This document shows, piece after piece, positions 892 to 32,291 of a stretch of DNA of 32,291 nucleotides. Each line of letters starts with the position of its first letter. Within the stretch, counting starts at the first letter, position 1. Source of the stretch: a virus (lineage: Duplodnaviria; Heunggongvirae; Uroviricota; Caudoviricetes); IMG/VR virus record IMGVR_UViG_2925939204_000003, positions 1 to 32,291 of that record. One strand, 5' to 3'. Below the pieces are notes generated by a model. It was not told the origin of the DNA, ran no database searches, and was given only the letters and a program-made list of their open reading frames with translations. A program made the position numbers and the translations under genes.

Positions 892-981
892 GGAGAGATG
901 CCGGAGCGGCTGAACGGACCGGTCTCGAAAACCGGAGTGGGGGCAACTCCACCGGGGGTTCAAATCCCCCTCTCTCCGCCA
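892..981 (+). tRNA. serU: tRNA-Ser (anticodon CGA), 90 nt with long variable arm
   Basis: GGAGAGA acceptor stem pairs with TCTCTCC, then GCCA; anticodon loop CUCGAAA; GGTTCAAATCC T-arm. Confidence 0.85.
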
Positions 982-5401: not shown

Positions 5402-5459
5402 AAAAAGGGCGGCAGAGCAGTCACGGAGTAAAACTGATACCGCCAAACGTCACCAGAAA
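5402..5459 (-). ncRNA. dicF: DicF small RNA (53 nt, 5407..5459) plus 3' U-tract of its intrinsic terminator
   Basis: Reverse complement reads UUUCUGGUGACGUUUGGCGGUAUCAGUUUUACUCCGUGACUGCUCUGCCGCCC then UUUUU; lies between ydfC and dicB as in Qin. Confidence 0.8.
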
Positions 5460-10457: not shown

Positions 10458-10584
10458 TTTTATGGATCACCTTTCTGATTGATTTCATATTGGCGAGGTG
10501 ACGTGAGTTAAGTAGAATGGCTGCGGGTGCTTGAGGCTATCTGTCTCAGGCATGAACACTGAAAGGCAGATAGAGAAAAGCCCC

Positions 10585-10646
10585 AGTTAACATTACGCGT
10601 CCGGCAAGACGCTTAACATTAATCTGAGGCTCAATCTATGAACGGC
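10585..10646 (-). ncRNA. Predicted Sok-like antisense RNA of the hok locus
   Basis: Minus-strand promoter -35 TTGCCT (10676..10681) and -10 TAACCT (10653..10658) at 17-bp spacing, placed as in plasmid R1 hok/sok; extent of RNA approximate. Confidence 0.3.
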
Positions 10647-10694
10647 AAATCTAGGTTAGCCTCTTACGTGCCGAAAGGCAAGGAGAAGCAGGCT

Positions 10695-10850
10695 ATGAAG
10701 CAGCAAAAGGCGATGTTAATCGCCCTGATCGTCATCTGTTTAACCGTCATTGTGACGGCACTGGTAACGAGGAAAGACCTCTGCGAGGTACGAATCCGAA
10801 CCGGCCAGACGGAGGTCACTGTCTTCACAGCTTACGAACCTGAGGAGTAA
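10695..10850 (+). CDS. hok: Hok-family type I toxin (51 aa)
   Basis: MKQQKAMLIALIVICLTVIVTALVTRKDLCEVRIRTGQTEVTVFTAYEPEE matches Hok (HokD/RelF-like); SD AAGGAGAAG; conserved upstream leader motif TAGCCTCTTAC. Confidence 0.75.
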   Translation: MKQQKAMLIALIVICLTVIVTALVTRKDLCEVRIRTGQTEVTVFTAYEPEE

Positions 10851-13024: not shown

Positions 13025-13384
13025 ATGCGTATAGAGTTTGTTTTGCCTTATCCGCCGACGGTGAATACTTACTGGCGACGTCGTGGCAACACATATTTTG
13101 TATCAAAAGTCGGTGAGCGTTATCGCCGTGATGTGGCACTAATTGTTCGCCAGCAGCGGTTGAAATTAAACCTGTCCGGAAGGCTGGCAATAAAAATTAT
13201 TGCAGAGCCACCGGATAAGCGCCGCCGCGACCTGGACAATATCCTGAAGGCACCACTGGATGCGCTGACGCATGCCGGACTTCTCATAGACGACGAGCAG
13301 TTTGATGAAATCAATATTGTGCGCGGACTGCCTGTTCCTGGTGGTCGGCTGGGGATAAAAATCACAGAACTGGAGTGCGCATGA
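13025..13384 (+). CDS. rusA: Holliday junction resolvase RusA
   Basis: 119 aa with RRRDLDN catalytic motif, LPxPPSxN N-terminus and GGRL C-terminal motif. Confidence 0.8.
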   Translation: MRIEFVLPYPPTVNTYWRRRGNTYFVSKVGERYRRDVALIVRQQRLKLNLSGRLAIKIIAEPPDKRRRDLDNILKAPLDALTHAGLLIDDEQFDEINIVRGLPVPGGRLGIKITELECA

Positions 13385-14070
13385 ATAACCAGTATTTACA
13401 GTTTGTGCGTGAGCAGCTCATTATCGCTACCGCTGATTTGAGTGGGGCAACAAAAGGTCAGCTTGAAGCCTGGCAGGAGAATGCCATGTTTGATACAGGG
13501 CGTTACAGGCGTAAAAAAATCCGGTACCACGATGAAGTGACTGGAAGAATGATAACGCGGGATAGTCCACCGATACCGGGAAAACAATCACTGGCGAAAG
13601 GCTCATCAATTGCTCTGGTAAGTCAGGTTGAGTTTTCGACATCATCATGGCGACGGGCAGTTCTGTCTCTTGAAGAACATCATAAAGCCTGGTTGTTGTG
13701 GTGTTACAGCGGGAGTATTTGTTGGGAATATCAGATCGCGATAACACAGTGGGCGTGGAATGAATTTAATACTCAATCCGGTACCAGAAAAATTGCAGGG
13801 AAAACGCAGGAACGCCTGAAAAAATTAATCTGGCTGGCGGCGCAGGCAGTAAAAGCAGAACTTTTTGGTGGGGAAGGTTATGAATACCAGGAGCTGGCAT
13901 TACTGGCGGGAGTGACAACTAAAAACTGGTCCAAAACATTTACTCGTCACTGGGTTGCAATGAAACACATTTTTCACCGACTTGATAGTGAGGCTTTATT
14001 GTTTGTAATGAGAACACGTTCAAAACAAAAGGCGGCATTTTCAAAGCAAAGTGTTGCAAAAGTAGATTGA
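13381..14070 (+). CDS. Putative late-gene regulator at the Q antiterminator position
   Basis: Positional only: directly downstream of rusA, start overlaps rusA stop, immediately upstream of pR'/tR'-like elements and lysis genes; no recognised Q motif. Confidence 0.45.
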   Translation: MNNQYLQFVREQLIIATADLSGATKGQLEAWQENAMFDTGRYRRKKIRYHDEVTGRMITRDSPPIPGKQSLAKGSSIALVSQVEFSTSSWRRAVLSLEEHHKAWLLWCYSGSICWEYQIAITQWAWNEFNTQSGTRKIAGKTQERLKKLIWLAAQAVKAELFGGEGYEYQELALLAGVTTKNWSKTFTRHWVAMKHIFHRLDSEALLFVMRTRSKQKAAFSKQSVAKVD

Positions 14071-14082
14071 AAGGCATATATT
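14054..14082 (+). promoter_or_regulatory. Candidate late promoter pR': -35 TTGCAA, 17-bp spacer, -10 TATATT
   Basis: Near-consensus sigma70 promoter spanning the end of the Q-position gene. Confidence 0.5.
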
Positions 14083-14135
14083 TCATGCAAATCTGATATT
14101 TTGCCGATTTTGTACGTGATGGCAAAAGCAAACAA

Positions 14136-14160
14136 AACCCGCCCACAAGCGGGTTTTTTG
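14136..14160 (+). terminator. Intrinsic terminator (tR'-like)
   Basis: AACCCGC-ccacaa-GCGGGTT followed by TTTTTT, about 55 nt downstream of the candidate pR' start. Confidence 0.6.
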
Positions 14161-14264
14161 TGCCACTTATCTCGGATAGACATGGTGAATGCGCTGGTGG
14201 AGGAGATAAGGGTGATTTTTGAATGCTTGCAACATTGATTTCGTAACGTTATTATCCTGCGCCC

Positions 14265-14340
14265 GGCCCTTTAGCTCAGTGGTGAGAGCGAGCGACTCAT
14301 AATCGCCAGGTCGCTGGTTCAAATCCAGCAAGGGCCACCA
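14265..14340 (+). tRNA. tRNA-Ile2 (anticodon CAU, lysidine type; ileX/ileZ-like)
   Basis: Clean cloverleaf; anticodon loop CUCAUAA; close to recalled E. coli ileX sequence. Confidence 0.8.
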
Positions 14341-14341
14341 G

Positions 14342-14418
14342 CCGCCACTAGCTCATCAGGAAAGAGCGTCAACCCTTTAAGTTGAGTGTGCGAGGTTCGA
14401 GTCCCCGGTGGCGGTCCA
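14342..14418 (+). tRNA. tRNA-like gene, anticodon ambiguous (loop CCUUUAA, nominal UUU); possibly degenerate
   Basis: Acceptor, D and anticodon stems pair; position 33 is C not U; one A-C mismatch in T-stem. Confidence 0.45.
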
Positions 14419-14420
14419 GT

Positions 14421-14496
<76 letters not shown>

Positions 14497-14499
14497 TAT

Positions 14500-14574
<75 letters not shown>

Positions 14575-14580
14575 GTTAGA

Positions 14581-14626
14581 GTCTTTCAGTCTGCGATGAT
14601 GGGAAATCCCGGAGTGACTGAAAGAC
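14581..14626 (+). other. Hairpin: 11-bp perfect inverted repeat GTCTTTCAGTC / GACTGAAAGAC with 24-nt loop containing an inner GGGA/TCCC stem
   Basis: Seen directly, just after tRNA-Gly. Confidence 0.5.
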
Positions 14627-14633
14627 GTTTAAG

Positions 14634-14706
14634 TTATGAATGATCGCCTTTTTTTGCAAAATTGCTGTGCAGAAATACTAACCTTCGGGCAGGCGATCAT
14701 TCATAA
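14634..14706 (+). other. 15-bp perfect inverted repeat TTATGAATGATCGCC / GGCGATCATTCATAA separated by 43 nt
   Basis: Seen directly in non-coding region between tRNAs and holin. Confidence 0.5.
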
Positions 14707-14866
14707 GCACTCTGCTTTTATTCCGATTAACTGTGGGTGGTTTGTTGGATAGAGTGCTTTCCTTTCTGTATATATCGTTTCGCCCGCTTTTGCGGTTTTT
14801 TCTTTTCAAATCCCTTTCATTTCTCAGTGTAAAACTACGCCATCCGTTATTTGCGGAGGTGAGGCT

Positions 14867-15082
14867 ATGAAATCCATGGACAAAATTTCAACGGGCATTG
14901 CCTACGGCACCTCCGCAGGCAGTGCTGGCTACTGGTTTTTACAGTGGCTTGATCAGGTCAGTCCGTCACAGTGGGCTGCGATTGGTGTACTGGGGAGTCT
15001 GGTTCTGGGCTTCCTGACTTATCTGACAAATCTGTACTTCAAAATCAGAGAAGACAAGCGTAAGGCTGCACGGGGAGAGTAA
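14867..15082 (+). CDS. S: Class II holin, phage 21 S21 pinholin type, dual-start (antiholin from M1, holin from M4 at 14876)
   Basis: [29 protein letters not shown].. matches recalled S21; two TM segments; Met-Lys-Ser-Met dual start. Confidence 0.8.
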
Positions 15083-15086
15083 TTCA

Positions 15087-15401
15087 ATGACTCAAAACTA
15101 TGAACTGATTGTGAAAGGGATCCGCAATTTTGAGAATAAAGTTACGGTAACTTTAGCGTTACGGGACAAAAAACGCTTTGACGGTGAAATTTTTGGCTTG
15201 GACATCTCGCTGGACCGTGTTGAAGGTGCCGCGCTGGAGTTTTATGAGGCAGCAGCCAGAAGGAGCATCAGACAGGTCTTCCTGGATGTTGCTGCCGGGT
15301 TATGTGAAGGGGACGAGCTGTTGCCAGAAACGCGCCCCTGTTCAGAGGCGCGGTATACCATAAAAATTAACAGTTCTGATAACTCGATTACAGGTTGTTA
15401 G
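15087..15401 (+). CDS. Hypothetical protein inserted between holin and endolysin
   Basis: 104 aa ORF with SD GGAGAG 8 nt upstream; no recognised family. Confidence 0.5.
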   Translation: MTQNYELIVKGIRNFENKVTVTLALRDKKRFDGEIFGLDISLDRVEGAALEFYEAAARRSIRQVFLDVAAGLCEGDELLPETRPCSEARYTIKINSSDNSITGC

Positions 15402-31710: not shown

Positions 31711-32291
31711 TGGCATTCAGAATGAGTGAACAAGCACGGACCATAAAAATTTATAACCTGCTGGCCGGAACTAATGAATTTATTGGTGAAGGTGACGCAT
31801 ATATTCCGCCTCATACAGGTCTGCCTGCAAACAGTACCGATATTGCACCGCCAGATATTCCGGCAGGCTTCGTGGCTGTTTTCAACAGTGATGAGGCATC
31901 GTGGCATCTCGTTGAAGACCATCGTGGTAAAACGGTCTATGACGTGGCTTCCGGCGACGCGTTATTTATTTCTGAACTCGGCTCATTACCGGAAAATGTC
32001 ACCTGGTTATCCCCGGAAGGGGAGTTTCAGAAGTGGAACGGCACAGCCTGGGTGAAAGATGCAGAAGCAGAAAAACTGTTCCGGATCCGGGAGGCGGAAG
32101 AAACAAAAAACAGCCTGATGCAGGTAGCCAGCGAGCATATTGCGCCGCTTCAGGATGCTGCAGATCTGGAAATTGCAACGGAGGAAGAAACCTCATTGCT
32201 GGAAGCCTGGAAAAAGTATCGGGTGTTGCTGAACCGTGTTAATACAACAACTGCACCGGATATTGAATGGCCAGTAGCACCTATAGGGTAA
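31710..32291 (+). CDS. tfa: Tail fibre assembly protein Tfa
   Basis: [37 protein letters not shown] matches recalled lambda Tfa; start overlaps stf stop (TAATG). Confidence 0.85.

Follow-up and report, generated by a model that had tools for sequence, protein, structure and literature searches.

Conserved hairpin modules beside a prophage tRNA array form one RNA family in lambdoid late-operon leaders

What does a prophage keep in the 292 nucleotides (nt) between its transfer RNA (tRNA) genes and its holin gene? We addressed this question for positions 14575-14866 of the window, that is, the whole 32,291-nt stretch of DNA that was analyzed, which is a Qin-like lambdoid prophage of Escherichia coli. 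An initial annotation had described these ~290 bp as structured and non-coding, and had offered a late-transcribed small RNA (sRNA), an attenuator of the lysis genes or the scar of lost cargo as explanations. Here, we show that the stretch holds three hairpins that are conserved as plus-strand RNA structure under purifying selection, and that these hairpin modules are one family spread through lambdoid prophages of Enterobacteriaceae. As to function, we favor, with a probability of about one half, the reading that 14575-14806 is the non-tRNA 3' part (the trailer) of an autonomous prophage tRNA unit and gives a processed, stable, trans-acting RNA.

On the plus strand, 14575-14866 folds into three abutting hairpins, named HpA, HpB and HpC. 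The folding energy is -95.2 kcal/mol, compared with -71.9 ± 4.9 kcal/mol for 200 dinucleotide shuffles (z -4.7), none of which folded as well; the minus strand reaches -72.7 kcal/mol (z -3.7). HpA (14581-14626, z -4.1 alone) starts 6 nt past the CCA of tRNA-Gly (last position 14574), and its base is the 11-bp perfect inverted repeat (14581-14591 and 14616-14626, arms 24 nt apart) that the initial annotation had rightly placed directly after the tRNA. A further 2 bp, an internal GGG/CCC mini-stem and a conserved loop complete this hairpin (CUGCGAUGAUGGG...CCCGGAGUG). HpB (14634-14706, z -5.1 alone) is built on a second perfect repeat, previously given as 15 bp with 43 nt between its arms; the repeat is present, and it measures 16 bp with arms 41 nt apart (14634-14649 and 14691-14706). 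Above this basal stem stand an apical stem (14651-14658 and 14668-14675) with the loop AAAUUGCUG, and a side hairpin, CC-UUCG-GG, at 14682-14689. HpC (14707-14757, z -4.6 alone) is a third large hairpin that had gone unnoticed; it has an 8-bp basal stem (basal arms 14705-14713 and 14751-14759), an internal loop and an upper helix with a G/U-rich 3' strand, GGGUGGUUUGUUGG. Further downstream, the GC hairpin and U-tract reported near 14783-14800 do exist, with the 4-bp stem CCGC-UUUU-GCGG lying at 14784-14795 (-6.6 kcal/mol) and U6CU4 running to 14806; this is the G+C-rich hairpin and U-tract of an intrinsic terminator.

The hairpins recur in related prophages, and their pairing is maintained. 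RNAalifold returned all three from 58 distinct HpA-HpB-HpC sequences, with 12 pairs changed on both sides. For HpB and HpC together (60 distinct sequences), 97.8% of 2517 alignment cells were in standard pairs, versus 36-49% when the 3' partners were slid by 1-3 columns. Two-sided changes affected 10 pairs (at most 6 in a slid register) and 167 cells (at most 50), and the covariation score was 0.263 (at most 0.09 slid). None of 500 shuffles matched the alignment in paired cells, in cells with two-sided changes or in covariation score; the numbers of pairs with such changes and of pair types were not above the shuffles, being reached by 165 and 377 of 500, respectively. For HpA (41 distinct sequences), 96.4% of cells pair, versus 41-49% slid, and five pairs show a two-sided change. 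Wobble pairs are strongly asymmetric, G:U outnumbering A.C cells 339 to 19 in HpB and HpC and 115 to 8 in HpA, and reading the sequences as the minus strand would lower pairing to 85% and 81%, respectively. This excess of G:U over A.C indicates that the constraint acts on plus-strand RNA. A covariance model of the hairpins, R1, scored plus-strand copies at 62-151 bits (150.8 bits across 14628-14764 in the window) and their complements at ~15-22 bits. The inverted repeats are conserved in related prophages with compensatory changes, so the proposal of a structured element survives the check that the initial annotation had named.

Some sequences within the hairpins are conserved beyond what pairing needs, and this between clades that are otherwise ~76% identical. 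In UUUUnGCAAAAUUGCUGUG, the 5' strand of the apical stem of HpB with its loop, 14 columns are invariant and four more are at least 90% conserved (18 of 19 positions at 90% or above). Nine of the 14 positions of GGGUGGUUUGUUGG are invariant and the others at least 90% conserved; in the HpA loop, CUGCGAUGAUGGG, eight positions are invariant and the rest again at least 90%. Sequence that is nearly invariant in this way, in loops as well as strands, speaks for a specific partner. The basal stem of HpC, by contrast, varies by compensatory change while its upper 3' strand stays the same. Copies of HpC that stand alone illustrate this with the basal stems GCACTCTG/TAGAGTGC, GCATCTCG/TGAGGTGC, GCACTCCG/TGGAGTGC, GCACATTAC/GTAGTGTGC, GCACATTG/CAGTGTGC and GCACCACC/GGTGGTGTGC, all of which pair; at least five of these variants come from the listed alignment and one from locus L180 (relatives are given by such numbers where they need to be told apart).

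The family is widespread. The 292-nt stretch occurs in 529-539 of 5426 complete E. coli genomes (~10%), at 583-593 places that are all chromosomal; a genome has up to five of them, and most lack annotation and exceed 95% identity. Carriers include extraintestinal pathogenic and avian pathogenic E. coli, sequence type 131 and Shigella lineages, with 1-5 copies each. Among sequenced phages it is found in four induced coliphages, in HK639 at 76% identity over the hairpins and, in part, in Salmonella Fels-1. In IMG/VR, pattern scans gave well over 100 loci, and a scan of one genome per species found the element in Phytobacter, Enterobacter, Escherichia, Shigella, Yokenella and Citrobacter. In all loci whose annotation was inspected, the element separates a Q-type gene from the lysis genes, on whose strand it lies; a Q-family gene just upstream was checked in the window, L004, L005, L006 and HK639, and the Q families differ among inspected loci.

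Within these leaders the hairpins behave as modules. HpA is absent from L130, L134, L139 and others, where HpB starts 2-4 nt past the tRNA; HpC is absent from L006 and L164. The modules persist beside a decayed tRNA in HK639, L005 and L006, and the annotation of the HK639 leader lists four terminators and no RNA feature at the element. HpC also occurs alone: after the late promoter pR' and its terminator tR' and just before the ribosome-binding site in L180, after pR'-tR' in L204, and after a putative promoter in L164 (5563-5637). Solitary HpC copies with extended outer stems were seen at L164:5563-5637 and in L180, L182, L197, L204 and L196/L210, and the L204 variant had no megablast match among the E. 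coli genomes. Copies of STnc100, a known sRNA of this location, sit next to the element in the leaders of HK639, L006, L164 and Fels-1. The Q-holin leader of Fels-1 (L169, NC_010391, ~11.8-14.2 kb) has three STnc100 copies, a pseudo-tRNA with HpA, a moron open reading frame (ORF) and then HpB; the ORF between HpA and HpB is STM0906.1n (putative secreted protein, 120 aa).

Perfect inverted repeats that reshuffle at module junctions could act as DNA: as a cruciform or protein-binding site, as a recombination linker between mosaic modules, or as a repeat resembling a miniature inverted-repeat transposable element. Recombinant joints in or beside the hairpins (L013, chimeric tRNAs) fit such a role. 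However, the strand asymmetry of the wobble pairs is unexpected under the symmetry of DNA; target-site duplications are absent, every copy lies in a late leader, and the places in E. coli are all single-context chromosomal prophage sites. We consider an action at the DNA level highly improbable.

We then considered how the hairpins might be transcribed. The four-tRNA array occupies 14265-14574 on the plus strand, as called by ARAGORN, the Rfam tRNA model and RefSeq, and comprises a tRNA with anticodon CAU (ileZ-type; tRNA-Ile in RefSeq), Lys-UUU, Thr-UGU and Gly-UCC. Upstream of it, a consensus scan and the comparison of relatives identified a putative sigma-70-type promoter at 14227-14255 (+), TTGCAA-17-TATTAT, followed by nine G+C-rich nucleotides, cctgcgccc, before the first tRNA. 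The pattern TTGnnn-N16-18-TAnnnT is found in 50 of 54 distinct relatives and in none of 54 shuffles, ending 9 nt (48 relatives) or 10 nt (two) before the mature 5' end of the first tRNA, tRNA-Ile2. The hexamers are TTGCAA/G/T and TAT(T/C)AT; they and their spacing are kept, with the G+C-rich stretch next to them, while the spacer sequence differs by lineage. The fixed 9-nt distance with the discriminator-like cctgcgccc is also common to Stx2a (Shiga toxin 2a) phages upstream of ileZ, at 94.7% identity. These features suggest that the prophage tRNAs may be expressed in lysogens under growth-rate or stringent control.

A terminator-like hairpin with a T-run lies within 130 nt past the last hairpin in 72 of 83 distinct variants (median 24 nt), versus 12 of 83 shuffles, and strong terminators (-9 kcal/mol or below) number 50 in the variants and three in the shuffles. 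The family consensus is GCCCGC-UUUU-GCGGGC-U4CU4, a 6-bp stem of -13.7 kcal/mol. The window has a weakened allele, GCGGTT, where relatives have GCGGGC, GCGGGT or GCGTTT; the terminator stem appears to erode in some lineages. The hairpins persist while the tRNA content of the array varies.

Given this coupling, the terminator alone might be what matters, as a fail-safe against transcription from the tRNA promoter and a leaky pR' into holin, with the hairpins as hitch-hiking spacer. An Stx2 phage indeed has the terminator and no hairpins, as detailed below, and the hairpins can be lost or interrupted: L006 has no HpC, L117 and L168 have a partial HpB, and insertion sequences sit inside HpC in L156 and L201. 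Spacer would not be expected to show compensatory changes, a 339:19 ratio of G:U to A.C and near-invariant loops across genera, all of which mark purifying selection on the RNA, nor would it outlast the decay of the adjacent tRNA, as the modules do in HK639, L005 and L006. We therefore regard a terminator-only role as quite improbable.

The conserved putative promoter and terminator bracket the hairpins, which makes the stretch the 3' trailer of what appears to be an autonomous unit. By position and signals, this unit would comprise the promoter at 14227-14255, tRNA-Ile2, -Lys, -Thr and -Gly, the HpA-HpB-HpC RNA and the terminator at 14784-14806. A moron is an autonomous unit of promoter, cargo and terminator in a late operon (Juhala et al., 2000, as cited in PMC4104026). 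A putative promoter upstream and a terminator downstream of the cargo, between Q-pR'-tR' and holin, are the anatomy of a moron, and we read the unit as a probable moron in the late-operon leader, with a predicted promoter and a predicted terminator of its own between late genes. The trailer also starts directly after the last tRNA of the promoter-bearing operon and has its 3' end at the intrinsic terminator.

The most likely product of this trailer is a processed, stable RNA of ~230 nt. In the lysogen, the unit would be transcribed from its own promoter and stop at 14784-14806, and this terminator together with tR' would keep holin and endolysin silent. The junction after the tRNA is conserved as CCA-G|U(U/C/A), with AG|UU right past the CCA of tRNA-Gly in the window, and the endonucleolytic cut that matures this 3' end, presumably of the RNase E type at AG|UU, would release the structured RNA. 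With a 5'-proximal hairpin, a 3' hairpin and a U-tail, the released RNA might be stable, and it might act through UUUUnGCAAAAUUGCUGUG of HpB and GGGUGGUUUGUUGG of HpC on a partner RNA or protein. It would then be a phage counterpart of the sRNAs made from the 3' trailers of tRNA operons, and of the other sRNAs of this slot. After induction, Q-modified polymerase from pR' would read through the unit; once the tRNAs are excised, the same hairpins would become the 5' end of the lysis mRNA, so that a role in cis may coexist with the one in trans. The initial proposal of a late-transcribed sRNA is thus modified: a small RNA is predicted and compatible with the anatomy, and its likely promoter is that of the tRNAs and not the late promoter alone.

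Several observations weigh against a trans-acting trailer RNA. Its release, its stability and any action in trans are what we infer. The RNA is almost wholly paired, and the only long single-stranded stretch, 14758-14783, is unconserved between clades, unlike a classic Hfq seed. Eleven of the 83 variants have no detectable terminator, and that of the window is so weak (4 bp) that a consensus scan with a 5-bp rule does not call it. The modules also occur without a tRNA upstream: HpB and HpC follow a small ORF in L129 and L156, and HpB of Fels-1 follows the moron ORF. Solitary HpC copies after pR'-tR' or before a ribosome-binding site, with no terminator of their own (L180, L204, L164), fit a cis-acting leader element at least equally well. 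Finally, the independent covariation events are modest in number and below the cell counts, because most changes separate only 2-3 clades.

A purely cis-acting role is a possibility that we hold tentatively, as clearly second to the trailer RNA. The hairpins would be processing or stability insulators of the late transcript at the junctions of cargo and lysis mRNA, acting as RNase III or RNase E sites or as protective terminal hairpins; once tRNA-Gly is removed, the lysis and morphogenesis mRNA would carry a hairpin at its 5' end as a shield against 5'-end-dependent RNase E decay. It is well known that 5'-terminal stem-loops stabilize E. coli mRNAs and that phage T7 uses RNase III sites. The first hairpin abuts the tRNA 3' end, by 6 nt for HpA in the window and by 2-4 nt for HpB where HpA is absent; the modules occupy varied leader junctions (after tR', after tRNAs, after the Fels-1 moron ORF and after a small ORF), are strictly co-oriented with the late operon, and include a 16-bp perfect duplex in HpB. 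Solitary and terminator-less copies suit this explanation better than they suit a trailer RNA. By contrast, a generic protective hairpin needs no near-invariant sequences (18 of 19 and 14 of 14 positions at 90% or above), a stabilizer of late mRNA has no need of a tightly coupled terminator, and an Stx2 phage excises tRNAs from the same kind of transcript without such hairpins. Roles in cis and in trans are not mutually exclusive.

A different cis mechanism would have the nascent RNA act on polymerase or Rho, as a put-like antiterminator or anti-Rho element that helps late transcription past the leader terminators. The put RNAs of HK022 and HK639 are likewise adjacent stem-loops in a leader, upstream of terminators and on the sense strand; unlike our element, they belong to the early operons, just past pL and pR. 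Here, one or two terminators directly follow a run of two or three abutting stem-loops, and solitary HpC lies just past pR'-tR' or a putative promoter in some phages. HK639 is itself annotated with a 126-nt putL-like antiterminator RNA (34187-34312) in an early operon and with an M3-like RNA (37910-37969; record L214), neither of which resembles the element. When R1 was run against HK639 (49.6 kb), its sole match was the late-leader copy, with none on the putL-like RNA, so homology to put was rejected. Moreover, all five inspected loci have a Q-family gene immediately before the leader, and a lysogen would suffer if transcription from the constitutive tRNA promoter ran on into holin and endolysin. 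Antitermination of this kind is, in our view, very improbable.

We also entertained the idea that the three hairpins make up a novel class of modular RNA devices of phages, which bind a specific host or phage factor and are neither base-pairing sRNAs nor passive stabilizers. Such devices might be decoys or inhibitors, co-expressed with the phage tRNAs, of a tRNA-targeting defense nuclease or an RNase, or they might be nascent RNAs that reprogram RNA polymerase or Rho in the late operon. We think this unlikely, and prefer a trailer RNA that acts in trans.

The slot had been described as a cargo position, and this is borne out by Stx2 phage VT2phi_272. Here the promoter and ileZ are homologous (94.7% identity, with the 9-nt spacing unchanged) and are followed by argN and argO, a terminator, GGCTCGCTTTTGCGGGCC-T6, ~15 nt past argO, and then stx2A; the region is also a moron and sRNA site according to PMC4104026. 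This tRNA moron (ileZ-argN-argO upstream of stx) resembles the unit in the window in promoter, first tRNA, spacing and a related terminator, GCTCGCTTTTGCGGGC-T-run. The two differ in what lies between the last tRNA and the terminator: ~15 nt and no modules in the Stx2 phage, where an R1 search found none, and ~210 nt of conserved structured RNA in the window. Thus stx lies beyond the terminator of the tRNA unit; the hairpins are an extra component within the unit and not the remnant of a toxin cassette.

This comparison with an stx-positive relative, which the initial annotation had called for, speaks against its suggestion of a scar of lost cargo, or of a decayed gene such as a former toxin or moron ORF. 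What could be said for a scar is that relatives carry cargo in the slot and that two phage records annotate a 38-aa "hypothetical protein" at an ORF of 38 codons, 14636-14752. However, only 23 of 58 distinct relatives keep this ORF whole; in the rest the ATG is missing, throughout one entire clade among them, or a frameshift falls in the T-run. The ORF was rejected, which agrees with the initial view that the ~290 bp hold no plausible ORF. The conservation is that of paired RNA and not of codons, the sequence is under structural selection, and stx does not occupy the place of this sequence in the Stx2 phage. We consider a scar extremely unlikely. Each of the lesser alternatives (terminator only, put-like or anti-Rho, DNA-level, gene scar) is contradicted by at least one test. 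The suggested attenuator of the lysis genes has support in one respect only, a terminator before holin; no alternative pairing was found, and the element is ~500 nt from holin in HK639-type relatives.

Is the element a known RNA under another guise? With Rfam 15 at gathering thresholds, the only matches in the window were tRNAs, DicF, sok and IS009. At E-values up to 10 over 13900-15200, no match was centered in 14575-14866; two chance-level tRNA-related matches (E 3.9-4.6) lie on tRNA-Gly, one of them running to 14585. The slot 3' of PR' is an established site of morons and sRNAs (Tree et al., 2014, PMC4104026), the source of the anti-sRNAs AgvB and AsxR (PMC4104026), of StxS (PMC7547250), and of the Pas sRNAs and STnc100 (PMC8550237; bioRxiv 10.64898/2026.05.13.724894). 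Like the element, AgvB, AsxR, PasA and PasC of enterohemorrhagic and enteropathogenic E. coli prophages have their genes in the moron site that separates pR' from the lysis genes (PMC4104026, PMC8550237). They differ in being 51-84 nt long and not linked to tRNAs, and AsxR, as well as PasA in strain E2348/69, is antisense to the late operon. STnc100 (RF02076) and its relative PasD share with the element slot and strand, a ~200-nt structured body followed by a terminator, and the possibility of several copies per leader; there is nonetheless no match to the element in sequence or structure, and no STnc100 in the window. A BLAST of window positions 14050-14900 against the PasA, PasC and PasD loci of E2348/69, with coordinates from the supplement of PMC8550237, gave only chance matches (E at least 0.09), and R1 found none in these loci either (L007-L009).

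Other comparable RNAs are those that neighbor tRNAs. A precedent is 3'ETS-leuZ, an sRNA sponge from the 3' external transcribed spacer of the E. coli glyW-cysT-leuZ tRNA operon. It too directly follows the final tRNA of a polycistronic operon and has its 3' end at the Rho-independent terminator there, and the element would likewise be freed by the cut at the tRNA 3' end. Unlike the element, with its ~230 nt, three large conserved hairpins and prophage location, 3'ETS-leuZ is ~50 nt long, chromosomal, and consists of a terminator and a short seed. Phage tRNA clusters are also accompanied by stable non-tRNA RNAs, namely the species 1 and 2 RNAs of T4 and the tRNA-adjacent GOLLD and ROOL. These are structured non-coding RNAs beside phage tRNAs as well, from other phage groups and of other sizes, and Rfam gave no GOLLD or ROOL match. 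Within the literature, 3'ETS-leuZ appears as "3'ESTleuZ" in the supplement of PMC8550237, and the sRNAs of rrn operons are trailer-derived sRNAs of stable-RNA operons (PMC8144298). On trailer sRNAs of prophage tRNA operons and on the ileZ/argN/argO promoters we found nothing specific, and no paper had the motifs of the element in a relevant context, in a literature coverage that was incomplete, so that an earlier description under another name is possible. As neither sequence nor model matches a known sRNA and the motifs were not found in the literature, we rate the element as an RNA family not previously described, of a class and at a location that are both known.

Several further candidates were tried and rejected. 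Mimicry of GcvB would rest on no more than one shared 10-mer, GGTCTGCGAT (E 0.07), and TTTGCAA, which is at chance level given the many comparable sRNAs. HpA as a degenerate tRNA-Gly (shared GATGATG, joint in L013) had a Smith-Waterman score matched by 107 of 500 shuffles. For an internal promoter in HpB, the palindromic TTGCAA is present and inspection found no conserved -10 on either strand; the consensus scan lists none. A boxA in the internal loop of HpC falls in the variable part of that hairpin. No complement to the conserved motifs of HpB and HpC was found at up to three mismatches, in a search that covered the prophage window.

The surroundings of the element are those of a lambdoid late operon. 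An identical RefSeq locus in E. coli strain 165 (NZ_CP020509) has the gene order RusA, antitermination protein Q, four tRNAs, class II holin, YdfR, lysozyme RrrQ and lysis protein. In the window, the ORF at 13375-14070 corresponds to Q, and its end overlaps a pR'-like late promoter, TTGCAA-17-TATATT, found by consensus scan at 14054-14082 (+). A tR'-like terminator hairpin at 14128-14163 (+; an inverted repeat with a fold of -19.3 kcal/mol, z -3.2) would end a pR' transcript of ~72 nt. Rfam matches below threshold at 14086-14159, to isrK (22.7 bits) and isrJ (24.5 bits), suggest that this short RNA may be a 6S/IsrK/StxS-type by-product of Q antitermination. Beyond the unit, the holin 5' leader at 14807-14866 (+), with the Shine-Dalgarno (SD) sequence GGAGGTG, co-varies with the holin gene and not with the hairpin modules; its last 34 nt match other genomes on their own at 100%. 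The dual-start holin ORF, also annotated in RefSeq, follows at 14867-15082. A hairpin at 14851-14919 (arms 14852-14861 and 14908-14917; -29 kcal/mol in context) would bury the SD and both starts of the MKSM dual-start holin, and in this model it looks like an sdi-like structure for translational control.

The tRNAs themselves are variable. The second one (14342-14418 in the window) has the anticodon UUU (Lys) in the window, UCU (Arg) in L004, AAA in L014 and an unassignable one in L130. The last is often chimeric or truncated, with a "Val" carrying an acceptor deletion in L004, further cases in L005 and L006, and half a tRNA-Gly in HK639. Elsewhere in the window, Rfam matches DicF at 5407-5458 (-), sok (hok/sok antitoxin RNA) at 10525-10700 (+) and IS009 at 32053-32251 (+), and ARAGORN calls a tRNA-Ser at 892-981 (+), all consistent with a Qin-like prophage and its chromosomal flank.

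Collectively, these results place in about one tenth of complete E. coli genomes an RNA that has no Rfam family or RefSeq annotation and that two phage records mislabel as a 38-aa protein. It is a third kind of module in the lambdoid late-operon leader, beside the short pR' RNA and the STnc100 and Pas sRNAs, in a leader already known for regulators of host physiology and virulence. If prophage tRNA arrays are the self-contained promoter-to-terminator units that they appear to be, the tRNAs and the RNA are probably made in lysogens. A stable RNA with a partner would tie the supply of phage tRNAs to riboregulation or anti-defense, and an RNA acting in cis would reveal how excised tRNAs are kept insulated from the lysis mRNA in phages. 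Under either reading, the family and its covariance model are a directly testable target.

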